Of a stretch of 64,000 nucleotides of DNA, positions 4,823 through 58,593 are shown piece after piece. Made by a program: the position numbers and the translations under genes. This DNA is from a virus: IMG/VR virus record IMGVR_UViG_3300003890_000014, positions 32,001 through 96,000 of that record. One strand, given 5' to 3'. Positions within the stretch are counted from its first letter, which is position 1, and each line of letters begins with the position of its first letter. The notes beneath the pieces are model-generated. The model saw only the letters and a program-made list of their open reading frames with translations, did not search any database and was not told the origin of the DNA.

Positions 4823-5308
4823 TTAACTTTCATTCTTCTTAAACTTACTCATGTTAAAGCGAGAGGTTGTTTTTAACTTAGCTGGGGCATCTGGTTGCCC
4901 TTCGGCACCAGCTACGTCAGCCTCGGTCGTTTTAGTGAGTAACTCTTCTTTGTTCTGCTTGAAGCGACTCATCTCGTCAGCAGAAGCAATCGATTTCTCG
5001 ATTTTAAAACCTAAAATTGCAAGGGCACGGCCAATAGCTACCGTTTCAGTGTATTCTAATACTTTTTCACCAAGAAGTTCGCTTGGGAGAAAGGCGTGTC
5101 CAGTAGCAGAAGCAAGTCCTGTGAGTCCATATTCTTGTCCGTCATTAGGATCTTTACAAATTACTGCTCTAACCAAAAGTCCATCCTGGTTAGATTCTAC
5201 AAAAGTATTAATCCTACCATTTGGATATTTACTCCAAAATTCATTAAGACGTTCGTTAACTTTGACATAGGAGTTTTCATTAAACTCTGAATCTTTAAAC
5301 TTATTCAT
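4823..5308 (-). CDS. Putative single-strand annealing protein (Rad52/Sak-like)
   Basis: YVKVNERL...YPNGRI...ATGHA...ETVAIGRALAILGF pattern; near an exonuclease gene. Confidence 0.55.
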   Translation of the reverse strand: MNKFKDSEFNENSYVKVNERLNEFWSKYPNGRINTFVESNQDGLLVRAVICKDPNDGQEYGLTGLASATGHAFLPSELLGEKVLEYTETVAIGRALAILGFKIEKSIASADEMSRFKQNKEELLTKTTEADVAGAEGQPDAPAKLKTTSRFNMSKFKKNES

Positions 5309-5714
5309 TTAAAAACCTCTTTAAATATTTAGTTGCATTTTTTAGTGATTTCATATTTTCTTTTAGATATCCAATCCCGTTATTACAGTTATTACAGAGT
5401 AATCCTCTAATTTTTCCAGTTTTATGACAATGATCGACTACCAATATCTTAGTCAATGCTTCTTCTGACTTCTCACAAATTAAACACTTATAATTTTGTT
5501 TAATCGCCATCTTCTCTCTTTGTTTCCATGTACACCCATAAAATCTTTTAAGAGCATAATTTCTAAGCCTATTAGGATTAGCTTTTCGCCACTGAGTCCC
5601 GTAAGCATATGCACACTGTTTACACCAGATAGCGTATCCATCTGGATCAGCTTTTCTTTTAAAGAAAGAGCTAACTTTTTTTCTTTTACGACATTTAGAA
5701 CAAACTTTAGTCAT
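5301..5714 (-). CDS. Endonuclease VII-family nuclease with N-terminal Zn finger (resolvase or homing endonuclease)
   Basis: CLIC...VVDHCHKTGKIRGLLCNNCNNGIG; N-terminal CSKC...DG...WCKQC. Confidence 0.85.
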   Translation of the reverse strand: MTKVCSKCRKRKKVSSFFKRKADPDGYAIWCKQCAYAYGTQWRKANPNRLRNYALKRFYGCTWKQREKMAIKQNYKCLICEKSEEALTKILVVDHCHKTGKIRGLLCNNCNNGIGYLKENMKSLKNATKYLKRFLNE

Positions 5715-14200: not shown

Positions 14201-14866
14201 TATGATTGCCATCTGCTCAAGAGAAGCAGCGGTTAGAGCCTTAGATTCAAATTGGTAATCGAAAGGAATTAAACGAAGCTCGGCATTGTAGTTAGAAGAA
14301 CTAACGTCCAAATCAAGATCAAGAGCGTTCGTATTAGTTAGAACTACTGAGGTTTCATCAGTCCCTGAGTTATAGGTACGAGAAGAAACTACAAGTTGAG
14401 CAATATTAGTATCGGTATCTGCCAAGAAGCGATGAACTGTTTGACCATCACTTGTGGTCTTACGGGCAATAAGAACCTTCTTAGTAGTAGGGAAAAACTC
14501 AGTTACGTCTCCGCTGAATACGAAAGTATTGGAAGCTACTGCAATATTCTTTGGAGCTAAAGCTTGGAGGGTCATTACAGCAACGCCAGTTGCTTTGCTA
14601 ACAGGAGCAGAAGCTAGACGATCACGAGTATAAGTACCAGCATCCTGTCCAGCATTAAAACGAAGAGCGTCAGCAGAAGCAGCTAGGTTTACTTTAGTTC
14701 CCTTACTGTCGTCATTAAAAGCATCAATGATTTGGTTAGGAACTTTGGTAATAAGAGCATTCAATTCTTCTTGACTAAGTTGCTGGAGGATATCAGCAGA
14801 ATCGGAGCCACCTCCGCTTCCTCCTGAAAAGTTCAAATCTGGGATCTTTACGCCTTTAATAGCCAT
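11267..14866 (-). CDS. Receptor-binding/tail fibre protein 2 (Asp-box propeller-like region plus LamG/ConA domain)
   Basis: Asp-box YTADRGKTW; LamG-like SFIIEAEIKP...FKGKIGYVKM; paralogous to the C-terminal part of 14878-19794. Confidence 0.75.
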   Translation of the reverse strand: MAIKGVKIPDLNFSGGSGGGSDSADILQQLSQEELNALITKVPNQIIDAFNDDSKGTKVNLAASADALRFNAGQDAGTYTRDRLASAPVSKATGVAVMTLQALAPKNIAVASNTFVFSGDVTEFFPTTKKVLIARKTTSDGQTVHRFLADTDTNIAQLVVSSRTYNSGTDETSVVLTNTNALDLDLDVSSSNYNAELRLIPFDYQFESKALTAASLEQMAIIDAFCEDVVRLAGENFAKEVGNVAPTILEKDAVMSPNKQYGIYRMMENTATHRTVEWFYTADRGKTWTSLGTRSTSDSLGYGFESADVYRFRNRSQIVVADNGKMFSTYTRQGAGGNAVVYGVYADISAGSPVLNDVPAIANQGVWHGNNGAGVIANSGSTALTATVGADLTDLSFIAVLCQYSGAASAGVAWYSNGGATALGNSPAADFELNAGGSAKVDIVGTAPNRRTWIGGRKSTTSQLKFYGWDEGSYGSLVYDLAPLTNHDLLDTRYSSTLNKLWFITHADSGGSMIYEIVNAATGSPSTASGTQRTVLNASSIQMDTRYGCMNDTNTDNFMKGYNTFLKMDPANHNHLLAVFSATSPDAYFRSYMLEVEDASDYKGVQLSKYVTLESNPTTLGPQGSFSTTAIRVARVTSGFSTHRLKSFGALVYQSFLYPSGTMLQGKLYNTSGGLPTTVVATSVNQIDASKITTDGNGQWIYFNFDDAALDSLTGTFALVIEFVSGSLPTSGGLVWRSQATGGTLYYYNGSSWVAWNESGQHRDPMFEVHGEWITDVGLGGEAQGVSHNGVANNCVEPSIEFIDSNQLQLLFRRNACGTSVRGYDLSGHIFRRVVSLNSNAKATISAAKIAGYAETNFDPNLVLNIAIGDTSAARINTTTGALNADERSADMSGIHFASNNENVTSADYVTDADFQLGFAVDLDGSSESWNGSTNSPLHHRIDNTRSFIIEAEIKPNDPTYTNYSNIVSNYDKSVDRGWTFQIRQGNGHLFFYMNNSGTNRIVEANEAEPQGYHKVRVVYNAVANTIKLYRTTAAPHTAFTEVSSYVTQQTPNATFPNAGDAGLRIGRIGGSASSDYFKGKIGYVKMAKFNPGVAPSFVYDGFKAQPAMITPQNLGIAIAAKKVTGEVDATNNTYSYYETMHIDGNSNQAAVVDSYDIITQFQHSLAQAGSELQLKISMNRGSSRNQSSIQGINFRFSK

Positions 14867-17800: not shown

Positions 17801-19794
17801 TCCCAAGGAATAACTCGCATTTGTGAGTGTAAGTTATTGGTAGTGACACCTTGCGCTAGGTCTACAGGAGTTCCTAGATTGGTAACTGTGATAGTAGTTT
17901 CGTCTAAGCCGATATTATAAGAAACAGCACTTACAACTAACTCTGCTATATTCCCATCAGCATCAGGAAGGAAGCCGTAACGATTAGCTCCATCAGCATA
18001 AGGATCAGAATCCTGTAAAAACTTGGCTAATAAAATCTTTTTAGTAGTGGGGAAAAGTTCTGTGACATCTCCTCCGAACTTGATGTTCTGGGAAGCTCCG
18101 TTCATAGGAACAGTTTGTCCATCTTTAGGTGCAAGAGCTTGAGCAGTGTGTACCGCTACTCCGGTAACTTTGGTCACAGGAGCTGAGCCTAAAAGTCGAC
18201 GAGTATAGGTGCCGTTATTTTGTCCGGCGTTAAAACGAAGAGCATCAGCGCTGGCTGAGAGGTTGACTTTAGTTCCTAAAAGGTTTGTGTCGAAAGAGTC
18301 TAAGATTTGGTTAGGTACTTTGGAAGCAAGAGCGTTTAGTTCGGCATTATCCAACGCTCCTAGAATATCTCCGCCATCAGCCGCACCGCCGCCTCCGGTG
18401 CCTAGATCTGACCAACTATCAGTGGGAAGATGTCTGAATTGAAGCTTTTGTGTTGTTGTATCCCAACGAATTTGTCCTTCAAGAGATGCGCTAGTTCCAA
18501 TGTGAATAGTTGATGGTCCAAGATAAGCGTCTTTCCATCGAAGAGCAGGAGCGCCAAGATCATAGGTATTGTCTGTGAGAGGTATTAAACTAGAAGTAAT
18601 AGCATCTAGTTCTGCCACAAAGTAACTTACCTTCTCTACTTCAATTTGAGCATCTGCGGGGAGAGGTTGGGTAGAAGGTCCGGCGATAATCTCATAAATA
18701 TCAACTTGGGTTCCAGAAGCTTCTTCGAAAACGACGTTGCCTACGTTATCGTTGACACCAGTAACTTTACGCTCAATATCTTGTCCGTTTACTCGAACGA
18801 CGATATCTCCACGAGTTTTACCAGAATTATAATCCTGAATAAAACTAAAACCTGTAGAAAGAGTTACACGAGTTTTGAGGGATACTGTCGAAATAGAACA
18901 GTTTTGTGCTTGAGTTCCATCAGCATATCCACGAGCAACTTGAATGGTCTTTTCAGCGAGACCTACCCCATCAAAGGTATTAACCAAGAATCGCATTTCG
19001 AAAATATCGTCTGCTATTGCTGGGAAACTTGGATGAAGAGTAATTTGATTTGAGGAATTTCCGGCATTAACTTCCATGTACTCGTCAGAATAATTTCCTA
19101 CTCCAACGGTAAAAGCAGCGACTTTGCGCATTTCGACGCCATTTCTAAAAAAGAAAGCGTTTTTATTATAAGAATAATTTTTAGTAAAAGTGATTGTAGT
19201 ACCAGTTACTCCAGTAGTTTCGGCTACTCTCCACTGAACAACTCCACCACCGCCAGATCCCCCACCAACAAACATTACGATATCTGAGTTAGAGATATTT
19301 TGTATAGTACCAGCAATATTCTTAAGAACTACATAACCAATTGCTCGACTACCTGTTCCAGCAGGAAGTAAAGCCGCAGCTTCGGAAGCAGCTGGATCGC
19401 CAAGATCGAGTACAAGATTATTTGCATCATCAAGAGAAATAAGAGCTTTTAAAAATTGACCAGAGGGAAGGGTGACTACTACGTCCGTACCTGGAGAAAC
19501 AACGGCGGTGCCTCCAGAGATTGCAGGGAAAACGATGTTACCAGAAGAAAAAGTAGGAACTTGATCATTGATGGGTTGGATCGTTCTGCGACGATTAGTT
19601 TGAGAATTAGTTACGACTACGTTCTCTACATTCACCGTGAGAGAGGGTGAAGTGGTAGCATTAAGTCTGAGAGGGGCTGTAAGTTCGCTATCAATTAACC
19701 GTAAGAGATCATCAAGCTCCATGTTTGCTTGGTTAGCAATTTGGGTTAATGTATCTCTTGAGATAAATTGTCTTACATCGGTTTTTGTAGCCAT
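14878..19794 (-). CDS. Receptor-binding/tail fibre protein 1 (1638 aa)
   Basis: Fibre shaft motif LIPLTDNTYDLGAPALRWKDAYL; Asp-box YTVDAGNSW; LamG-like FCIEIETKP...FNGKIGYAKF. Confidence 0.78.
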   Translation of the reverse strand: MATKTDVRQFISRDTLTQIANQANMELDDLLRLIDSELTAPLRLNATTSPSLTVNVENVVVTNSQTNRRRTIQPINDQVPTFSSGNIVFPAISGGTAVVSPGTDVVVTLPSGQFLKALISLDDANNLVLDLGDPAASEAAALLPAGTGSRAIGYVVLKNIAGTIQNISNSDIVMFVGGGSGGGGVVQWRVAETTGVTGTTITFTKNYSYNKNAFFFRNGVEMRKVAAFTVGVGNYSDEYMEVNAGNSSNQITLHPSFPAIADDIFEMRFLVNTFDGVGLAEKTIQVARGYADGTQAQNCSISTVSLKTRVTLSTGFSFIQDYNSGKTRGDIVVRVNGQDIERKVTGVNDNVGNVVFEEASGTQVDIYEIIAGPSTQPLPADAQIEVEKVSYFVAELDAITSSLIPLTDNTYDLGAPALRWKDAYLGPSTIHIGTSASLEGQIRWDTTTQKLQFRHLPTDSWSDLGTGGGGAADGGDILGALDNAELNALASKVPNQILDSFDTNLLGTKVNLSASADALRFNAGQNNGTYTRRLLGSAPVTKVTGVAVHTAQALAPKDGQTVPMNGASQNIKFGGDVTELFPTTKKILLAKFLQDSDPYADGANRYGFLPDADGNIAELVVSAVSYNIGLDETTITVTNLGTPVDLAQGVTTNNLHSQMRVIPWDYKYEAKSLSSEALEQMKISDASLSDVIRLQGESPQKLVTGGDVDGSLPGFWTAFSENKQYGVAWGYQSESGNDQISVYYTVDAGNSWTFLGHKTTAGSYPPSSVFLNLELSNPTQAFVANNGKMALMYNRNGTNREVWAVYANLSSSPVLTDFPDISGGAGRMFFDGGQHYDALTIGGDKVDGSLVHMWSVNSGGPQNLGRVWTWTGATPVHIGSTSAISTISNQPASVHVLGTSPSRRTWFVYTSASNNLNGLYFAEASTSFTTFALDSGGNIANHGGIAFDETGTGIMYVSYRSTSGDWYMRYFNNVVSGSPALVSGFTVMNSASGMLTPVDGGVGATAQRDFMQKTINRRVIIDPSNNKHVFFVDEIQHPDSGARRSGFIEVKNTDSMVGTQISQYSTDNNYNLRHNSGATKQAQTFTGSATRVRTVALRLFQNGVIPPGYEISVKIEATTGGNPNGTVLASSVNTYDPSRITKSTSGQWCFFNFDDSDVESLTGVYAIVLEGTFPISASNYISFKGNTGGYAGGNVTSYDGSSWSASATLDFVFEISGEWITDLGLGREQNTSSGTDSNLQEGVCESSIALISNNQINFLFRKTYDSVNSLRYGISGHPFRRVITINSGAISTKGDATVVGFQDGDFDPRLVFNVSLGNDDSRAFTADGAVIANQKFWDRSGLALNVAASPNIVDADFVADSSFQSGFACDFDGSSEAIQYSDNSAFDLYYYKPFCIEIETKPTALASTMFPIAHWTGAHGWKLRIGTDGSVEFEIIDSGSVLRGGARSATGVITAGVYKIIRVVGLGTGLAPKIYTATAYDGTFTEVPSYSSQTSFTTGQTSATTSLTIGANGDLTAYFNGKIGYAKFANGASSFAYTGWKNQAPLINCVNHGSIMSANKVIGQSNGDGSYDTPFYQGVVMNPDASEASMVDSYDVVAQFNHELAGDPGRELELKVTAGRGSERNQSSIQGINFRFTK

Positions 19795-24678: not shown

Positions 24679-26571
24679 TTATGTAAAAACCAGAGGGCCT
24701 TGTCCAGTTAAGGCTCCCCTATAATCAGGGCTTTCGGATGGACCACAAGTCCTACAAACACATTCAAATAAAACTTCTGGGAATGAGATCAGAAATCTAA
24801 TGACTACTCCTGCTGCTAATAGCTTCTTAATGAGGTTCTGGGCAGCTTGGCGGGCTTCTTCAGTACCCACTACATAAACAGCGTAGTCTTCGCCTGTAAC
24901 CCTTGGAATAGTAGGGGAATCTGAGATGAAATTAATTTTTCTTCCAATTAAATGCTCTTGTTGAAATATATAACTTGCGTCAATCAGTAAAGTAGAGTTA
25001 TTTGGTCTGCTATTGTACTGGATTGGGCCTTCCTGTTCAGACCTTCCAAAGTTCAATAGAATCTTACCTGGCTTATTGGGAAAGCTTGCTGCGTTCGCCA
25101 CTGAAAGGGTTGGTACAATTGATCCGCTATTGACTGTGGTAGATAGTTCTGTACTAACTCCAGTTACAGTAAATAATTGACCAGTTGGATCAAACAAGTA
25201 TGCAGAAGGATAGTCAGTCACAATAAGATCTGGATCTTGCTGTAAAGTAGTTATAAATCCTAATACTATATTTGCTGTACCTCCAGTAATTTGATACTCA
25301 GAGCTTCCTTCTGTAGTTCTTAGACCTACTTTTTTATAGTTACTTCCCTGACCGTGTGTAAAAGCTTCTAAAAATGTTAGCTGATTATTTATAACTTCTA
25401 CTACCTCTTCTGCGGTCACTGCTGAAGGGTCAACAAAATCAGATGCATGAGTAAAAGTAACTGTAAAAGGATTCCCATCAATAGTTAGAGTTAAAGTAGA
25501 AGATACACCTAATCCGCTAAAGTCAAATACTTCTTCATTAGAGTAAATTTCTAACTTATCTTGTTTAGGGTGAGCAGCACCTCTTAGGGTTCTCCTAAGA
25601 ACTGGAACAGAACTAGGAATTTTAATTACTAATTCATTAGGATTGATTTCGTAAACACTAGCTTTAACTTCAGTTTGTTTTACTAAAGAGAAATTTAGTC
25701 TTGCTGGAGTATTGGCATCGCCGCCTAAAATTTGGATAGAACCTAGTAGTCCTGGCGTATTTGTTCTTAAATTTAATTTATTTCCAGAAAGAGGATCTAA
25801 AAATTTACTGGCGGTTATATTTAAGTTGTGTTCAGGGTCAGCGTTAATAAATGCGACTAACTCATCTACAGATATATTAGTGATGTCATCAAAAGCGTAA
25901 GGTTTGAATCGAAGAGTCACTGCGGGTTTGTTATCTACTTTATAGTCAAGAGTTCTTACTATTCCTAAAGAAATATTACTGTTAATAGCGATATCACTAT
26001 CCCATTCCATAGATAGGTCAAGCTCAGTATCACTATGAATAGCCGATACTTTTTTATAAGTATATCCAGAAGCAGCTGAAGCTTTAATGTAATCTCCAGG
26101 AGCAAGTTCTGTTAGAAATAGAGTTCCTGTTCCTTTAACTCTTTTTGTTCCCTTAATAAAACTAGCTGTTCCTGTTAACAGACTTACTGGACCAAAATTA
26201 TAGGTTTCAGTTGTTCCGCTATTAATATTTGGTCTTGTAAATCCAGCTCCCCAAAATACATCTAATAAAGAGATAATAGTTTTACGAACTTGTTTTGGAT
26301 AAAAAGACATTACAGGTATAAGTTTACGGAAGTCATCATCACCCATGCCTAAATTAGGGTCTCTTGGAACTCCTACGTTATTACCTAAATAATCTAGATA
26401 TCTTCCTTCTGCCTGTTCCACAAACAATTGATCTTTTGTATTTTGAATCTGAACTACAATCTCATCATCAGATAATCCCCATGCCTTTAAAAGACCACGG
26501 ATCATTACGTTACTCTCAGCTTTATAAAAACTCGGCAAACTACGAGCCATTCTCTGAAATTTATCCGCCAT
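24679..26571 (-). CDS. Baseplate wedge protein (P2 gpI / T4 gp7-like)
   Basis: AEGRYLDYLG...GVPR...DDDFRK and C-terminal LLAAGV; follows baseplate J. Confidence 0.75.
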   Translation of the reverse strand: MADKFQRMARSLPSFYKAESNVMIRGLLKAWGLSDDEIVVQIQNTKDQLFVEQAEGRYLDYLGNNVGVPRDPNLGMGDDDFRKLIPVMSFYPKQVRKTIISLLDVFWGAGFTRPNINSGTTETYNFGPVSLLTGTASFIKGTKRVKGTGTLFLTELAPGDYIKASAASGYTYKKVSAIHSDTELDLSMEWDSDIAINSNISLGIVRTLDYKVDNKPAVTLRFKPYAFDDITNISVDELVAFINADPEHNLNITASKFLDPLSGNKLNLRTNTPGLLGSIQILGGDANTPARLNFSLVKQTEVKASVYEINPNELVIKIPSSVPVLRRTLRGAAHPKQDKLEIYSNEEVFDFSGLGVSSTLTLTIDGNPFTVTFTHASDFVDPSAVTAEEVVEVINNQLTFLEAFTHGQGSNYKKVGLRTTEGSSEYQITGGTANIVLGFITTLQQDPDLIVTDYPSAYLFDPTGQLFTVTGVSTELSTTVNSGSIVPTLSVANAASFPNKPGKILLNFGRSEQEGPIQYNSRPNNSTLLIDASYIFQQEHLIGRKINFISDSPTIPRVTGEDYAVYVVGTEEARQAAQNLIKKLLAAGVVIRFLISFPEVLFECVCRTCGPSESPDYRGALTGQGPLVFT

Positions 26572-27145
26572 AACGATTTCCCTTTTTAAGATTATCTTCG
26601 GCCCATAGCGGTTGTAAATTTGTATAACGAAATGCTTCTTTATATTGTTCGTTATCTTTTAGATTGAAAATTGATAAAGGTTTTATATGATCAATATGCC
26701 AACCATTTTTACCGTAATTATCCCAAGACATTTCTGGCTGAAATTTAGATTCTAAATGCTTTTTTAATTGTTCAAATGAACAATCTAGCGCTTCAAGTGT
26801 TGATCCTTGTTTCTGATTATTCTTTAATGCTAGTCTAATTCTTGCTCTCATATTTTGAGCCAATATAAATATTTCTCGTTCTTTACGGGCCTTTTTTTGC
26901 CAGTTATTTTGTTCTATTCTTATTTTATCTTTTCTAGTAATTTTATACACATTTGATAATTCTTTTACTCGTTCAGGATTTCGTAATCTCCATCGACGTA
27001 GTCTCTGTCTTTTAGCTTCGATATTAACTAGCTCATAACTCTTACAACACAACTTACACCAAGGATGTAATCCATCTACTCTTCGAGTTTGTTTATAAAA
27101 CTCTAACAATTCTTTCTCGATATTGCATTTGCTACAAGTCTTCAT
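26561..27145 (-). CDS. HNH-type homing endonuclease
   Basis: CSKC...DGLHPWCKLC; HLESKF...MSWDNYG...WHIDHIKP...NLQPLWAEDNLKKGN. Confidence 0.85.
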   Translation of the reverse strand: MKTCSKCNIEKELLEFYKQTRRVDGLHPWCKLCCKSYELVNIEAKRQRLRRWRLRNPERVKELSNVYKITRKDKIRIEQNNWQKKARKEREIFILAQNMRARIRLALKNNQKQGSTLEALDCSFEQLKKHLESKFQPEMSWDNYGKNGWHIDHIKPLSIFNLKDNEQYKEAFRYTNLQPLWAEDNLKKGNRYGG

Positions 27146-30100: not shown

Positions 30101-31503
30101 AATACTTCTAACTCAGAGAAATTCAAAGCTTCGTTGGCTGTTGATGCTGAATCCAATTGCATGTTCTCATTTGTTCTAGTTCTAGGACTGATAATAACTT
30201 TACGACCATCTGAGTCTGTGATAGTACGTGCTTCAAATAAAGTTGCACGATTGTTGATGGCTTCCGCAATTTCAGTTGCCTCTGCTTTACTAGGAGTTTC
30301 AAAATCAGATGATGCAAAAGTAAATGTCTCTTCATCCGTACCAATATTAAGTACTAAAGTTTCTAAACCCGAAAGATTAAAAGGTTCTACTTTTTGAGAA
30401 ATAATAGTAGACTTAGCGATTGGGAAATTCTGTAATTGGAAGAATTGTTCTCCTCCAGTCGCTTGTGTAACTAATGTCTCTAATCCAATTGAACTAAAAG
30501 CGGGTTCTAAACCTCTACCGTTATCAATATAAACTTTCGTGGGACCATCGGCAATATTTACTGGAGGAATAATACTTACACTTACTACACTTGAGTTTGT
30601 ATTCTCATCAATTAATCCAATAATACCGCTCTTAATAGATTGACCAGTTCCTCTAGACAAAGCTTGAATATAATCTCTAATTCTATCTCTTAAATCTTGA
30701 TCTGATTCAACATCTCGTCCATTTATAAATGGAAGTGGGTTAGTAACAGCGGCTGTTGGGAATGGAGCACTAGGAAAGGAGATTACTGAATTGGCGGGGA
30801 CTTTAATTCCTCCTGGTTCTACTGCAGTGACAAGAATATTTGTTACTTCATCTTCGCCATCTAGTAAAACAACTTCTTGATTAATCTCAAATAAAACTTG
30901 CTCGCTTACATCTGATTCTGGAATTTCTACTTCAGTTCCAGCAGGAATACTTCTAATCCCTCCTTGAGCTAAAATCACACTCTCGTCTGTACCATGATCA
31001 TTAATCAAAGCTACATCTAACGAGATAGTCCAATATGATCCGTTATTAATTGGAGCAGAAGAATAAGAAATAGAACCTTCTGAATTAGCGGTGCCTCTCC
31101 CGATGTAGATTGCGCCTGAAGCAGGAAAACTGGAAGCATCGTCGATATTGATTATTGAAGATCCTGCGGTAGGTCCTGAAAGACCCGCATATAATTTTGT
31201 AGAGATTTTTGAAAAGGCTACGTCACTAATCGACACAAATCCACTATGTGGAGCAGACTGTTTTCTGCTTAGACCATATTCAGCGGCTCGCTTATCTAAA
31301 TCTTCCCCTTCAGTAGTATCGAGATTATAATTGCGGATAATATTCAACATCTGAATATATTGTTGAAAATCTTCTTGTGCTGAAGTTTCGAGTAATGTGA
31401 GAGCTACTGATCCATCAGTAAAATCTGTAATAGGAGTTTCCGCAGATAATTTAGCAGCTTGATCTGCTACAATTTGAGGAAATGATTTAGGTGTAAATTT
31501 CAT
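27148..31503 (-). CDS. Baseplate J-like wedge protein, greatly extended (1451 aa)
   Basis: ITDFTDGSVALTLLE, EGEDLDKRAAEYGLSR, GRDVESDQDLRDR; C-terminal VGQDVVLSEI...GVFDV. Confidence 0.88.
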   Translation of the reverse strand: MKFTPKSFPQIVADQAAKLSAETPITDFTDGSVALTLLETSAQEDFQQYIQMLNIIRNYNLDTTEGEDLDKRAAEYGLSRKQSAPHSGFVSISDVAFSKISTKLYAGLSGPTAGSSIINIDDASSFPASGAIYIGRGTANSEGSISYSSAPINNGSYWTISLDVALINDHGTDESVILAQGGIRSIPAGTEVEIPESDVSEQVLFEINQEVVLLDGEDEVTNILVTAVEPGGIKVPANSVISFPSAPFPTAAVTNPLPFINGRDVESDQDLRDRIRDYIQALSRGTGQSIKSGIIGLIDENTNSSVVSVSIIPPVNIADGPTKVYIDNGRGLEPAFSSIGLETLVTQATGGEQFFQLQNFPIAKSTIISQKVEPFNLSGLETLVLNIGTDEETFTFASSDFETPSKAEATEIAEAINNRATLFEARTITDSDGRKVIISPRTRTNENMQLDSASTANEALNFSELEVFTLKLYKNDKLLTKDGLTASLISLAQPFNLSTNVVTTTDSDITVVPNSRIVTKTVPGVNPFNQFVHPGDYIKFSGDSDLFYTRVLTVVSDTKFILDSAYPNAGGGLGNIVIWNSPQLEVAANGDIEQTEVISFGPNDFANPSQALALEVYNRIVQELNLSKIELAVDNTKIKIISEVENSEMSKMQVTGGGAATALGFCIPASINGLVTFSGGSKVVTGAGTLFTSDLQEGQWIKANLDGAGSWTKIESIESDTVLYLTEGYRGENRAAVASSKINFSILSQGKNADYTLNRSNGQIELQVPLSANDSLTAGSINTRAFSDSIPELYDFDSLGLTSDLIVCIDGGFNGTVTIGDGSAPYDTFIDTSLIGYSASLFNGFYIEWISGANYGQTGFVSSYNNLTGQISTIAGFSNPISNGDKFVLCQVINFVHASDFADAQNATAAEVVAVINAQLFGGKAETTLTNEVRIRTGNFQSSGKVQIKGGLANSVLAFSTTEAENQLANLAFVQSGNSDRNGNPAAKGFTLGPGQNLVAILDNDSLNKTFAVSLEAKGVVTGVGVGTFTDSVLGSKYTDAGYFNEFWIYWTAGLNTGSVQLVTAYSGVSGIITYQDIFPNTLPNPISSGDEFSIVPRTAENAVKFLNDFNITTLSIVGDADVVGISGDFVQLATKLPGSKGKVYVTGGTANEIGIPIQSIPGGSPVNDLTVNSIAGLAKGLFVDISLDGTVTTGDSLVPYDTFIASVLTSAIPSYFTGMTIEFLTGNNAGHKTTISSYNNITGQFVLASATINQISINDTFRINSSAYIVDIQGTSAPYTLSLNDQSNAPIDVTEFSLARNGTIRDNNGFNFSNIQVEGVDGYKYFTSLIQKVQWTIDGIDHDPNNYPGIGAAGTQFEVLAPVLVKLKLIIDVTTEEGVSLSSVSDSISNAILEYVNSRGVGQDVVLSEIVTAAQSVGGVFDVTISNHSSNIVVADGELARLDSSDLIIG

Positions 31504-32015
31504 ATTCTATTACCTTTTTTAATATTATCCAAAGCTGGTAAATACTGTAAATTATAATCTACATGTAATCCTGTTATATTCTTTCCTTTAAGCGGAATGA
31601 TATGGTCTACATGAAAACCTTTAGGACAATTTTTATAAATATCTTTAATCTTATCTAAGTTAGCCCATTTAGGAGTGGCGTTTAGCTTTGCGGCTCTGCG
31701 GTTTGCCTCTACGGCATTATAATATTTTCTATTAGTTTTTTTAGATATATTACTTAAGTGCCTAGCCTTCTCGCGATTATTTTCTCTCCATACTTTATTC
31801 CTTTTAAGAATACTAAAACTACCATTTTTATAAAGCATCTTATGCCTTAAACTTTCGCAATTTTTGCAGTGGGATGCCCGACCATCTTTATGATGCTTAA
31901 CCTTTTGAAATTCTACTATATTTTTAGTACTTAAACACTTAGAGCAAGTTTTAAACCCGAGAACTAAAAGTTCTATGTTATCCTTTATTTTGTAAGGCCG
32001 CCCTTTTGTTTTCAT
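31500..32015 (-). CDS. HNH homing endonuclease
   Basis: RRAAKLNATPKWA...HVDHIIPL...GLHV..NLQYL...N..KGN. Confidence 0.88.
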   Translation of the reverse strand: MKTKGRPYKIKDNIELLVLGFKTCSKCLSTKNIVEFQKVKHHKDGRASHCKNCESLRHKMLYKNGSFSILKRNKVWRENNREKARHLSNISKKTNRKYYNAVEANRRAAKLNATPKWANLDKIKDIYKNCPKGFHVDHIIPLKGKNITGLHVDYNLQYLPALDNIKKGNRI

Positions 32016-34264: not shown

Positions 34265-34600
34265 TTACTCAATTGTTACACTGATTTCAAATTCCCAATC
34301 CAGCATATCTAAAGATGGTAAAGCTGGGAGAGTGGGTAATGAGGGAAGAGAAAAACCTAGTGAAGGTATGGGGATAGGTAGTGTAAAAGTTGGAAGTGTG
34401 GGTAATGTTGGGAGTGCTAGATCTAAATTAGCATCAAATGTTGGGAGTGTAGGTAAAGCTGGGAGAGTGGGTAATGAGGGAAGGGAAAAACCTAGTGAAG
34501 GTATGGGGATAGGTAGTTCTGGTATTGGCATCTTCAATACCTGATTGATCAGTACTGATCCTTCAAAACTTCCTTTTGTAGTTTGAACTAATACTGACAT
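34265..34600 (-). CDS. Proline-rich (LPx)n repeat protein
   Basis: Fills the gap in the operon on the coding strand; LPSLPTLPALPTLPT runs. Confidence 0.6.
   Translation of the reverse strand: MSVLVQTTKGSFEGSVLINQVLKMPIPELPIPIPSLGFSLPSLPTLPALPTLPTFDANLDLALPTLPTLPTFTLPIPIPSLGFSLPSLPTLPALPSLDMLDWEFEISVTIE
34317..34517. repeat. 66-bp direct repeat, two copies (34317-34382 and 34452-34517), 1 mismatch
   Basis: Direct comparison of the two copies; encodes LPIPIPSLGFSLPSLPTLPALP twice. Confidence 0.9.
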
Positions 34601-42255: not shown

Positions 42256-44055
42256 TTAAGCAGACTGCCTAATGTTATCCAAAGTAATTCGGTTTAATAC
42301 GAAATCGATTCCTTGAACTGGAGTTATAGTGATGTCAACATTAGCTACATTTCCACTAAGGCTAACAGTCAGATCTTTCCAACCAAGGTTATTATTAGTG
42401 TCATCACCTACAAGCAATTCTTCTCGCAGAAAGGTTGACATAATAGAGATAACAGTATTTTTAATTGCTTCAGCGGTTCCGGTTTTAGCTTTCTCACCAA
42501 CAAAAATTGCTTCGAGTTGCTGTCTAAGATTATAAGCAACTGTATCAGCAGCAGCAAGAACATGTGGCCTGTTAAAAACAAAATTAGCGTCTTTGCTATA
42601 AGTAGAATTATGAAGAACTACTCGGAAACCACCGCTATCAACTTCTTCAAGAGCAATTAAACCACTATCGATTGCAAGTTCAACTTGTGTTCGAGGATTG
42701 AAATCTTCATGTGAAATACCATTAGCATTCAAAAGTTTGAATGTTGCAGGAGTTCCAACTGGCATACCAGCTTGCATTCCAGCTACCATACACGCAGCTG
42801 CCCAAGGCTCTTCAGTTTTGATAGAACCATCAGAACCAAGAATATCTACATCTTGGAAAAGCATAGAAGCTCTTTCGTGATTAAGATCAAGAGAAGCATC
42901 TTGAGTATTTGCGAATGTATCTTTTATAGATACATAACAATTTCTTTCACTTCTATTCTTAGTGTTTGAGGCTAAGATACAATGTGTAACAGCCTGAAGA
43001 TTTACAGAATCTATATCAAAAGTAGAAGCTGCGTCGGTCTTTCCTTCAGCTGCTAAATCAGCAGCATCTCTCGAAATAAGAGGAACGACGATATTACAAC
43101 GAGAAGCTAAAAGGGCATCGAAACCGTCTTGGAAATCACTATTAGCAGAAGCACCTTTTACTCCGCCAGTCATAAACTTTTTGGCTTGAGTAGCAATAGT
43201 ACCTTCTACATCAGCGATTGAAACAGCTTCAATTAAGCTTGATTCGCCATTGATAATATCTAGTAACTCTTTTTGTTGAGCACGAAGAGTTTTAGGAGTA
43301 GTTTTAATATCAAGAGGAGTAGAAATTGGATCAAGATCAATAGCTGGTTTAGAAGCGGCTAATTTATAAGTTGTAGTGCAGGTATAAGCAGTATGATTAT
43401 CTACTAAATCCACGATATCCTGAATACTCTTATTTGCAAGAGGGATTGAAAGGTTATCAGCTGCGCCTGTCACAGTAATATCAAAAGATCCGCCCTGAAT
43501 GTCAAGAGTAGCGGCACTGCCTGCACCAGTATATTGGATTACCAACATTGGAGCATAAGCATTTTCAGAAAGAACTTCTTTCTTAGAACCTTTTTGTACA
43601 GTAATGATTCGTGCATTAACATTTACAATACCTGCATCAATTTTTACACTAATTAAGCTTTCGTCTTCTCCCCAGTTTTTTGAATTAAGGGTGAATAAAT
43701 TTGCAAGGGCTGCGTTCTTAAGGGTCATCGAAGCTTGAGTAGATTGATTCGTTTTATAAACTCGAATCACTGAAGCACCATTAACAACTCGTGCATCACG
43801 AGCTGGAGATACTAGTAATCTAGCTGCATCTACAATCGGTCCAGATTTATATTTATCAGAGAGGGCTGCGATGTCCTCACTCGTAAAGGTTTGAACTCCT
43901 TCTTCAGATCCAGGTGCACCACCATCGGCTTCACCGATGATTGCAACGATTCCCGTTTGTGAAAGAGGAAAACCTCCAGTCAAATTTACTTTAGTCTCAG
44001 AATATGCACCAGGCTTCCTAATGTTAGCACCAGCAAAATTTATATTAATTGCCAT
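42256..44055 (-). CDS. Tail sheath protein
   Basis: KPGAYS, IIGEADGGAP, YKSGPIVDA; C-terminal VDITITPVQGIDFV. Confidence 0.92.
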   Translation of the reverse strand: MAININFAGANIRKPGAYSETKVNLTGGFPLSQTGIVAIIGEADGGAPGSEEGVQTFTSEDIAALSDKYKSGPIVDAARLLVSPARDARVVNGASVIRVYKTNQSTQASMTLKNAALANLFTLNSKNWGEDESLISVKIDAGIVNVNARIITVQKGSKKEVLSENAYAPMLVIQYTGAGSAATLDIQGGSFDITVTGAADNLSIPLANKSIQDIVDLVDNHTAYTCTTTYKLAASKPAIDLDPISTPLDIKTTPKTLRAQQKELLDIINGESSLIEAVSIADVEGTIATQAKKFMTGGVKGASANSDFQDGFDALLASRCNIVVPLISRDAADLAAEGKTDAASTFDIDSVNLQAVTHCILASNTKNRSERNCYVSIKDTFANTQDASLDLNHERASMLFQDVDILGSDGSIKTEEPWAAACMVAGMQAGMPVGTPATFKLLNANGISHEDFNPRTQVELAIDSGLIALEEVDSGGFRVVLHNSTYSKDANFVFNRPHVLAAADTVAYNLRQQLEAIFVGEKAKTGTAEAIKNTVISIMSTFLREELLVGDDTNNNLGWKDLTVSLSGNVANVDITITPVQGIDFVLNRITLDNIRQSA

Positions 44056-44071: not shown

Positions 44072-44323
44072 TTAATAGCGTTTAAAAATTTTATCAAAAT
44101 CTTCTTCCGTAGCTTCGTCAAGTTCGTTATTCTCAGCATATTTTTTCATTGGCGCTTTATGATGTGCTCGAATTTTTGAATTCCTCTTCATAAGCAGTTG
44201 AAAATATACATCAAAACTTAGAACTCTTTTAGTAGGTTTAGAAGTTTTTTTCTCTTCTGACTCTACTATTACTTCGCTATTTTCGTCTACTATATTTTTT
44301 TTATGAGACTTTTCAATTCCCAT
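44072..44323 (-). CDS. Hypothetical protein upstream of sheath
   Basis: 83-aa ORF with GGAG/AGGA RBS. Confidence 0.6.
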   Translation of the reverse strand: MGIEKSHKKNIVDENSEVIVESEEKKTSKPTKRVLSFDVYFQLLMKRNSKIRAHHKAPMKKYAENNELDEATEEDFDKIFKRY

Positions 44324-44369: not shown

Positions 44370-44534
44370 TTAATCTGAAATGTCGGTGATAACAACAGTT
44401 TCCTCACTATCAGGTTTAGGAGATGGTACTCTTAATGTCAGATCAAAACAGTCAAGTTTGTTATGTTTTCTTAAGTTGTCTTTTGCCCACAGTAGTTGTA
44501 GATTATCTAATCCCCAATTAGTACAGACTTTCAT
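44370..44534 (-). pseudogene. Internally deleted HNH endonuclease remnant fused to a duplicated 3' end of the upstream gene
   Basis: Hand translation MKVCTNWGLDNLQLLWAKDNLRKHNK-LDCFDLTLRVPSPKPDSEETVVITDISD; compare HNH 26561-27145 (MKTCS...NLQPLWAEDNLKKGN). Confidence 0.75.
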
Positions 44535-44627
44535 ATATTACTCGTCAGACGTATTTGTTATCACTATAGTATCCTCACTATCGGGTTTTGGGGCTGGCAC
44601 TTTTAACGTAAGGTCGAAACAATCAAC
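44375..44627. repeat. Diverged ~82-bp direct repeat (about 44375-44456 and 44546-44627)
   Basis: Encodes DCFDLTLRVPSPKPDSEETVVIT versus DCFDLTLKVPAPKPDSEDTIVIT; differences mostly at third codon positions. Confidence 0.88.
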
Positions 44628-45467
44628 AAGGTTGACTTCAGCCTGATCCCAGTCGAACTCCGTTATACAGTTCACATCTATATATCTACTAAACACATTC
44701 TCCCCCGAGAACGTATCCTCTCTATCAAATATACTAGCAGTTCCTCGGTCTAAATGCAATCCCCTGTTAATCATAGAATCTTGTCTAGATTTAAGAATAT
44801 ACATGACTATATAATACAGGTACTTAGCAATATGAATGTCATCTTTTGCATGACAGCCTAAACGTATAGTTTCTCGAAGCCTAATCATTCGTCTTTCAGT
44901 ACGCTTAAAATCAATCCAGCTCTCTATTCTGCCACCTGCTGCTAAACTAGGTTCCATACCAGAGCCTATATTGATAAATTTATTTCCTGACAAATTGCTG
45001 TTGCCAGGTTTTATATCGAACTTAGTTCCTAACGAATCCACAAAAATAAGATTTGGACATACCCCGCTTAAGTCTGCAGCGTTTATAATTGTCAATTTCC
45101 CTGTTAGAGTATCATAAGTTCCAGGATCGACTACAGGTACAATTACGGTAGGAGTCTTATCTTCTTCTTCATCTAAGTACTCATTTCCTAGATTCTGAAT
45201 TCCCTCAGACTCATCTGCACGAATAAGTTGAATTGATATGCACGGTATGACGGTTTGAATCATGGAATGCGACTGAGTGAGTTTAATTTGATTATTTTGA
45301 ATGTAAGTCTTTAGGCGAGTAATTTGAGTTATTCCAAATTGATTGATGAAATGTGCTTCTGTAAAACGACTGAATAGATCGTCTAATTTATTGGGATTAG
45401 TTTTAAGATCTCCTAATCCATCTCTGAGTACGGTTTCGATTACAAATTCTGTTAATGGAGCGCCCAT
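44538..45467 (-). CDS. Tail terminator/completion protein
   Basis: PCISIQL...E...LG; last neck gene before the sheath. Confidence 0.62.
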   Translation of the reverse strand: MGAPLTEFVIETVLRDGLGDLKTNPNKLDDLFSRFTEAHFINQFGITQITRLKTYIQNNQIKLTQSHSMIQTVIPCISIQLIRADESEGIQNLGNEYLDEEEDKTPTVIVPVVDPGTYDTLTGKLTIINAADLSGVCPNLIFVDSLGTKFDIKPGNSNLSGNKFINIGSGMEPSLAAGGRIESWIDFKRTERRMIRLRETIRLGCHAKDDIHIAKYLYYIVMYILKSRQDSMINRGLHLDRGTASIFDREDTFSGENVFSRYIDVNCITEFDWDQAEVNLVDCFDLTLKVPAPKPDSEDTIVITNTSDE

Positions 45468-57945: not shown

Positions 57946-58593
57946 TCAAGTCTTGTGTCTCCAAGATTCGTTGGAGTGGGTTCCATCAAAGGAGTTGTTC
58001 TTTTGTTTGTTCTCTGTGTCCGTCAAATACTGAAGATTGTCTAAAGTATGTAACCCGCACACGTTTTCGTTGATTAGGGGGATTATATGGTTTATAGTGT
58101 GTCCTTCGGGGCAGGCTTGGTAAAAGGCTTTGATACCGTCTAGGTCTGCCCACCGAGGGGTGGCATTTTCTCGTTGGAACCTGCGTTTGGCAGACTGTGC
58201 TCTAGCTGCTAACTTTACCTCTGGTTTTGCTCCTCTAATTTTGGCATATTCGGATATCTTTTCTTTGTTAAGTTCGTAATATTTATCATGATATTCTTTC
58301 ATGTATTTATCGTATTTTTCTCGATTAGATTCTACCCATTTCTTATGTCTGGTGTTATATAACTTTTTGTTTTCTTGGTAATCTTTAGCATTCCACTCCT
58401 TTTTGCGTTGAATTACTTTGGGAGAAGACCAATACTCTTTTAATTGATCTTTTTTTCGAATTCTATATTCCTTCATCCTAATTCTTTTACAAAACTTACA
58501 CTCTTTTGAATATCCATTTGCGGTTTGAGGATGTTTGCAAAATTCTACTAATTCATACTCTTTTTTACATACTAAACAAGATTGTTTTTCCAT
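57946..58593 (-). CDS. HNH homing endonuclease
   Basis: CLVC...CKFC; ATPRWAD...INHIIPL...GLH...NLQYL...N..K.N. Confidence 0.85.
   Translation of the reverse strand: MEKQSCLVCKKEYELVEFCKHPQTANGYSKECKFCKRIRMKEYRIRKKDQLKEYWSSPKVIQRKKEWNAKDYQENKKLYNTRHKKWVESNREKYDKYMKEYHDKYYELNKEKISEYAKIRGAKPEVKLAARAQSAKRRFQRENATPRWADLDGIKAFYQACPEGHTINHIIPLINENVCGLHTLDNLQYLTDTENKQKNNSFDGTHSNESWRHKT

Follow-up and report, generated by a model that had tools for sequence, protein, structure and literature searches.

The 3′ end of a tail-terminator gene in an uncultured virus is followed by a short open reading frame (ORF) that is probably the fossil of a free-standing HNH homing cassette, one that replaced the 3′ end of the gene it targeted. 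The stretch of DNA analyzed here (the window; 64,000 nt) comprises bases 32001-96000 of a 112,813-bp uncultured-virus record with a G+C content of 37%, and the locus comes from one metagenome assembly, in which it lies on a single contig. The order of elements at the terminator is a full-length host gene, an HNH-derived ORF and a repeat of the host gene's 3′ end. An earlier note on this DNA had reported a 54-codon ORF located 3 nt past the stop codon of the tail terminator, and our coordinates and translations agree with that description. The features are given below, with positions counted from the first base of the window.

44538..45467, minus strand: 309-aa neck/tail-terminator gene, host gene of the putative cassette; an ORF of full length with the usual C-terminus of its family
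44544..44627, minus strand: copy A, terminator residues 281-308, the 28 sense codons preceding the final Glu codon
44535..44543, minus strand: junction, consisting of the final Glu codon, the TAA stop and a 3-nt spacer (TAT), after which the ATG of the relic follows
44370-44534, minus strand: relic ORF of 54 codons (54 aa), its ATG 3 nt past the terminator stop
44520..44534, minus strand: putative relic of an HNH gene start, MKVCT, five residues with the pattern M-K-x-C
44457..44519, minus strand: relic of an HNH gene end, the final 21 residues, with the last helix motif NLQxLW..DN..K.N
44373..44456, minus strand: copy B, a second, putatively displaced version of the terminator's last 28 codons that continues the reading frame of the HNH relic
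44370-44372, minus strand: TAA stop belonging to copy B
44072..44323, minus strand: conserved 83-aa gene that separates terminator from sheath, the normal downstream neighbor
42256..44055, minus strand: tail sheath gene (phrog_279, E = 4.7e-51)
26561..27145, minus strand: intact 194-aa HNH endonuclease of the same genome, with which the earlier note had compared the relic
31500-32015 and 57946-58593: the two other intact HNH genes of the window
5301-5714: endonuclease-VII-like gene

The terminator gene ends with the conserved DCFDLT block followed by a proline-rich and acidic tail. Copy A, which is the terminator end currently in use, starts at DCFDLT, the last conserved block of the family. 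The relic ORF and the terminator gene share one reading frame (TAA, TAT, ATG), and the two copies, of 84 nt each, are repeated with a period of 171 nt. This repeat (blastn E = 2.7e-7; tblastn E = 8.6e-13) is one of only three internal repeats found at E < 1e-3 in the 112.8-kb genome. Two minor sequence features were also recorded at the locus. A sigma-70-like -10 hexamer occurs at ~44340, between the relic and the 83-aa gene, and an 88-codon antisense ORF (44380-44646, plus strand) covers both repeat copies; the latter is unsupported and most likely arises only because coding sequence is repeated on the opposite strand.

The 309-aa host gene had no match in Pfam or PHROGs. An AlphaFold model built on 39 homologs (pLDDT 79) was compared with known structures using Foldseek and was found to resemble the neck chain 8qkh_G of Staphylococcus phage 812 (E = 4e-10) and 8q01_M (E = 9e-10), both with a TM score of about 0.5; further matches were to the neck/terminator ("gateway") proteins of E217, Pa193, Pam3, A-1(L), T4 and PVC. 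Because of this fold match and the position of the gene one small gene upstream of the sheath gene, the label "tail terminator" used in the earlier note holds, and the predicted fold supports a myophage neck/tail-terminator protein. The terminator family contains at least 120 homologs, nearly all of them 289-331 aa long, and the gene in the window is therefore complete. At the DNA level the region matched none of 50,697 phage records, and the sole match in a protein search was to Myxococcus phage Mx1, with 22% identity. A group I intron or an intein was considered and rejected, since the host gene already has its complete, normal length ahead of the insert; an Rfam search of the whole window, in which no family attained its gathering score, also speaks against a group I intron.

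The two gene ends differ at 24 of 84 nt, and the differences are distributed 4/2/18 over codon positions 1, 2 and 3. Identity is 71% at the nucleotide level and 75% at the amino acid level, with seven of the 28 residues differing, all of them conservatively. Synonymous sites are saturated (pS 0.85) at a pN of 0.12 (Fisher p = 8e-9). The description of the second copy as mostly synonymously diverged is thus borne out, by 18 third-position differences out of 24 and by only seven amino acid changes. Orthologous ends of separate phages, taken from phage pairs 68-83% identical over the whole terminator protein and themselves 72-78% identical in amino acids, showed codon changes at 57-71% of conserved residues, and the value for A versus B was 62%. 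Because orthologous ends of separate phages diverge in the same way, copies A and B are allele-like and do not have the appearance of a local duplication; judged by their sequences, they resemble gene ends from two separate but related phages that have come together in one genome. The word "recoded," which the earlier note had applied to the replacement end, is an overstatement, as the synonymous divergence equals that of ordinary orthologs, and selection for recoding is unnecessary as an explanation.

These data also bear on the possibility that a local tandem duplication diverged in place and that the HNH-like piece between the copies is an unrelated scrap. Such an event would leave a direct repeat, as seen here with its period of 171 nt, but a redundant copy should gather non-synonymous changes and stop codons. 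When 24 random substitutions were simulated on copy A, seven or fewer amino acid changes and no stop codon were obtained with a probability of P = 5e-6, and saturation of synonymous sites with a protein that is still 75% conserved is likewise not the expected outcome. In addition, a simple tandem duplication in relatives, which had been set in advance as a finding that would speak against the homing interpretation, was sought and no relative shows one, nor was any gene-end duplication seen in relatives. We consider an origin by local duplication extremely unlikely.

The middle piece of the relic is derived from an HNH gene. Residues 6-27 were aligned by hhalign with a profile of 10 intact phage HNH sequences (probability 95.6%, E = 1.2e-8), and the alignment falls on the C-terminal end of the profile. 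An hmmsearch of the six-frame translation of the genome with the HNH profile recovered the relic (E = 2.7e-5) together with the three intact HNHs and the endonuclease-VII-like gene, and nothing else of note. The middle segment, for which a lack of HNH similarity in profile searches had been named beforehand as evidence against the proposal, therefore does show such similarity. A phmmer search of 1.84 billion representative proteins with the 54-aa ORF matched a full-length HNH (E = 1.5e-4) in the motif part only; the remaining matches were the ORF itself, a repetitive low-complexity protein (P0122) and a marginal match lacking an aligned stretch (P0124). By BLASTP, the best intact match to the relic was the HNH encoded at 130-819 of contig L072 (15 of 18 residues identical), and the HNH at 838-1476 of contig L032 shared 14 of 19. 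The profile phrog_1035 matched the relic at E = 0.039 with the same profile end as for the intact 194-aa HNH, and no Pfam match, PF01844 (HNH) included, was obtained with the 54-aa ORF.

The start of the relic is less distinctive. The intact HNHs at 26561-27145 and in contigs L006 and L029 begin with M-K-x-C, a pattern that MKVCT follows, and the spacing is similar, the relic starting 3 nt and the 194-aa HNH 2 nt past the upstream stop codon. Comprising five residues, which are weak evidence when taken alone, this sequence is suggestive of a remnant of the HNH gene start. Thus, where the earlier note had seen the first and last residues of an HNH with the middle deleted, the profile matches confirm the last residues and leave the first ones as a suggestion. 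In an alignment with 10 intact HNHs, the relic covers none of the columns that precede the last helix, and both His153 (invariant) and Asp152 (nearly invariant) fall among the missing ones. The beta-beta-alpha-metal core has lost its H-x-D-H strand and first Asn, and of the CxxC...CxxC zinc finger only M-K-x-C, with one of the four Cys residues, is left. With neither a zinc finger nor a catalytic His/Asp strand, the predicted product is that of a gene stump and cannot be an active nuclease. In a separate observation, a 199-aa HNH (P0123) encoded on a 1.9-kb metagenome contig was found to carry the C-terminal NLQPLW..DN..K.N motif twice in tandem, the first motif copy being the one closest to the relic; this arrangement may represent an end replacement inside a nuclease gene itself.

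Relatives of the locus were collected as about 35 distinct contigs from IMG/VR, JGI metagenomes and one GTDB genome. All of them have a single terminator end and no insert at the site. The distance from the terminator stop to the sheath start was 248-379 nt in 21 measured loci and 482 nt in the window, where the gap carries exactly 171 nt extra. In close relatives the gene order is a 222-aa gene, the terminator, the 83-aa gene and the sheath, with the 83-aa gene at the same position throughout the group with 35-74% sheath identity; the loci beyond the 21 measured ones likewise keep the gene order and lack an insert. None of the about 35 related contigs from IMG/VR, JGI and GTDB carries an intact HNH in the interval from the terminator to the 83-aa gene. 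Of the two kinds of allele that the earlier note had anticipated, those with a single 3′ end are therefore common among these contigs, and those with a full HNH at the site were absent. Likewise, neither phmmer against the 1.84 billion representatives nor a word-based search found a longer protein in which a full HNH is fused to the terminator tail. Among distant relatives, the sheath of L024 (L024:5229-7403) has an extra in-frame insertion of about 125 residues and that of L025 (L025:5229-7402) has a broken frame with two ORFs. An intron or a homing-endonuclease gene was considered for these sheath interruptions and rejected, as one is an extra in-frame domain and the other a broken frame, and there was no Rfam match.

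The 54-codon ORF might instead be a working small gene, for example an assembly modulator or a decoy that carries the C-terminal arm of the terminator, and its conservation would then stem from selection at present and not from its past. Its frame is open over 54 codons and was preserved by the presumed deletion, all seven differences between B and A are conservative, and a start 3 nt past the upstream stop permits translational coupling. However, the only true match among the 1.84 billion representatives is the ORF itself, in a cluster that holds nothing else; its Shine-Dalgarno sequence is weak and those of the neighboring genes are strong; and the ORF is absent from all ~35 distinct related contigs. 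We therefore regard a working gene as very unlikely. Translation of the 54-aa peptide is possible on the basis of its sequence, and a function is unlikely given that the ORF has no homolog.

The anatomy of the locus and the allele-like, mostly synonymous divergence of its ends fit a homing element that replaces gene ends, as the earlier note had proposed. During co-infection, the nuclease of a donor phage would have cut the terminator gene of the recipient near DCFDLT, and repair of the break would have copied the donor's gene end (probably copy A) along with the nuclease gene. On its other side, the break would have recombined within a downstream gene-end fragment, so that the recipient's old end (probably copy B) was left behind the nuclease gene and fused to it in frame. 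The terminator gene would in this way have remained whole with no need for an intron or intein, and copy A, as the imported end, would be resistant to cutting. A later single in-frame deletion of roughly 150-190 codons would then have removed the zinc finger and the catalytic core, and what is left over, the HNH start, the last helix and copy B, would make up the 54-codon ORF.

Comparable arrangements have been described outside of phages. In Torulaspora and Lachancea yeasts, WHO elements cut a sensitive allele of FBA1 and donor repair swaps its 3′ end; the old FBA1 end is pushed downstream, where it decays, as do former nuclease genes (Coughlan et al., 2020; PMC7282813). The window shows this same order, namely a full host gene with a resistant 3′ end, an endonuclease gene and a displaced fragment of the former 3′ end, and in both cases the ends are diverged alleles (85% nucleotide identity in yeast versus 71% here), the nuclease decays after homing and splicing is not needed (PMC7282813). 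WHO elements differ, however, in that they encode intein-like LAGLIDADG enzymes with zinc fingers in a diploid eukaryote, whereas the present enzyme is an HNH of a phage. In the window the replaced end comprises only 28 codons, and the nuclease ORF runs on in frame into the displaced end; there is one relic here and a cluster of WHO elements in yeast; and cleavage and homing have been demonstrated in yeast but are proposed from sequence for the phage. A second parallel is provided by the mobile endonuclease ORFs (mORFs) of fungal mitochondria, which form gene hybrids in Allomyces atp6 and in Glomus atp6, atp9, cox2 and nad3 (PMC3630166). These hybrids consist of the gene core, a foreign C-terminus, the endonuclease ORF and the native C-terminus, in that order, and their duplicated ends show mostly synonymous differences, with some parts in phase with the host gene (PMC3630166). 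The mORF enzymes are of the LAGLIDADG or GIY-YIG type and reside in organelle genomes, unlike the phage HNH, and the native end was identified there from close relatives, whereas the best relative here has 71% amino acid identity.

By analogy with these systems, copy A would be the imported end and copy B the displaced native one. Copies A and B are mutually closest, sharing 21 of 28 residues, compared with at most 19 of 29 columns shared with any of 119 family tails. With the closest relative at 71% amino acid identity at best, no family tail among the 119 separates A from B, and codon spelling within DCFDLT, where relatives differ freely at third positions, singles out neither copy. At the seven differing positions, a by-eye comparison with the nearest family tails counted four lineage-specific (derived) residues in B and one in A, a count that is not significant but fits B as the unused copy.

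Free-standing homing endonucleases of phages include mobA-mobE of T4, and both intronless homing by SegF and SegG and trans-homing of the defunct I-TevIII by MobE belong to this field. The window locus resembles the free-standing phage HNHs in its packing between conserved genes, in decay to a defunct copy and in its probable spread by co-infection repair. Classical phage examples either occupy the space between genes or interrupt a gene (mobE in Aeh1 nrdA, mobA with gene 60), and to our knowledge classical free-standing phage HNHs have not been described as carrying a replacement gene end. A literature search, which was not exhaustive, found the present layout described only in fungal mitochondria and yeast and not in phages. 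The locus is real and well delimited and, as a probable fossil of a mechanism known outside phages, is new in its enzyme type and its host, with a single decayed copy. Phage homing endonuclease genes are usually described between genes or inside introns and inteins; this locus suggests that HNH elements of phages can, in addition, invade the coding end of a structural gene, which stays whole because the corresponding end from another phage comes with the element. Replacement of gene ends has been demonstrated experimentally only for the yeast WHO elements and is inferred for fungal mitochondria. If the process were general, selfish nucleases would shuffle the ends of virion genes between phage lineages, and puzzling short ORFs and repeated gene ends in annotated phage genomes would find an explanation. 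The relic would document, in a phage, the decay stage of a cycle of invasion, fixation and decay.

The intact HNH closest to the relic motif offers a parallel. Contig L072 (IMGVR_UViG_3300017738_000357) encodes an intact 229-aa HNH at 130-819 in an unrelated context, a T7-like replication module. A perfect 17-nt direct repeat (119-135 and 805-821) brackets this gene; shuffled controls had repeats of at most 10 nt. Each repeat copy includes the final four codons of the upstream gene, its stop codon and an overlapping ATG, and the HNH ORF begins on the first repeat copy and ends, in frame, through the second copy of the upstream gene end. In its sequence, this gene shows the same design as the window locus, in miniature and intact. 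A bracketing repeat of this type was absent from the other HNHs examined.

The main rival to a homing cassette is a single accidental event, in which an illegitimate (unequal) crossover joined the 3′ end of an intergenic HNH to the terminator tail of a co-infecting relative, with later deletion of the HNH and no cassette carrying a replacement end. The same anatomy and the same allele-like divergence would result. The HNH/B junction falls where both partners can encode K-L (the L072 HNH reads KHNKL), so that a short microhomology is possible, and an occupied allele was not found elsewhere among the about 35 related contigs. On the other hand, such a crossover needs an intergenic HNH at the site, and no relative has one; it leaves both the in-frame fusion and the in-frame spacing of 171 nt as coincidences; and the L072 HNH, by also reading into a duplicated gene end, points to a recurrent mode rather than an accident. 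We consider a single crossover unlikely, and a gene-end-replacing HNH cassette remains our preferred reading.

Metagenome assembly must also be weighed, as strains of A-type and B-type could have been stitched together or a full HNH collapsed. The record is one assembled contig, and a second contig with the same proteins is probably from the same assembly. The precise junction of stop codon, 3 nt and ATG, the in-frame block of 171 nt and the fusion of HNH to copy B are nevertheless unlike strain-merging errors, and the exact stretches shared by A and B, on which an assembler could jump, are at most 11 nt long. An artifact is accordingly judged highly improbable. There is a slim chance that the 171-nt block has not lost all activity: it might still be a miniature non-autonomous unit mobilized in trans by one of the three intact HNHs, with A as the immune end and B as a recombination handle, or the 54-aa peptide, with its extra C-terminal arm of the terminator, might be made and used in tail assembly.

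The terminator neighborhood is an HNH hot spot in this phage group. Intact HNHs lie between the 222-aa gene and the terminator in four distinct relatives, L006, L016 (the same contig as L028), L029 and L037, and belong to two subfamilies. A fifth such locus, L044, is a 1.6-kb fragment near-identical to L037, and in L032 the HNH is found one gene further upstream of this site. The three HNHs and the endonuclease-VII-like gene of the window are tightly packed between virion or other genes and have in common an N-terminal CxxC...CxxC module. No flanking gene-end duplicates were found around these four genes or around the HNHs of the relatives, and the gene-end duplication mode is therefore not general for the HNHs of this phage group. 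The HNHs of L016 (L016:3454-3999) and of L037 and L044 (L037:1959-2501; L044:737-1279) occupy the same insertion site, and their N-terminal zinc-finger modules are identical at 31 of 58 residues. Their nuclease cores fall into separate subfamilies (26 of 84 residues identical), and they resemble different HNHs of the window, with 49-58% identity. Taken at the level of sequence, this pattern suggests that site-specific DNA-binding modules have been swapped between nuclease cores.

Two direct repeats were recorded elsewhere in the window. One, at 34317-34382 and 34452-34517, is 66 nt long with 98.5% identity and its copies lie 135 nt apart. The other, at 14576-14767 and 18151-18342, is 192 nt long with 70% identity between copies 3.6 kb apart, and presumably consists of paralogous gene segments.
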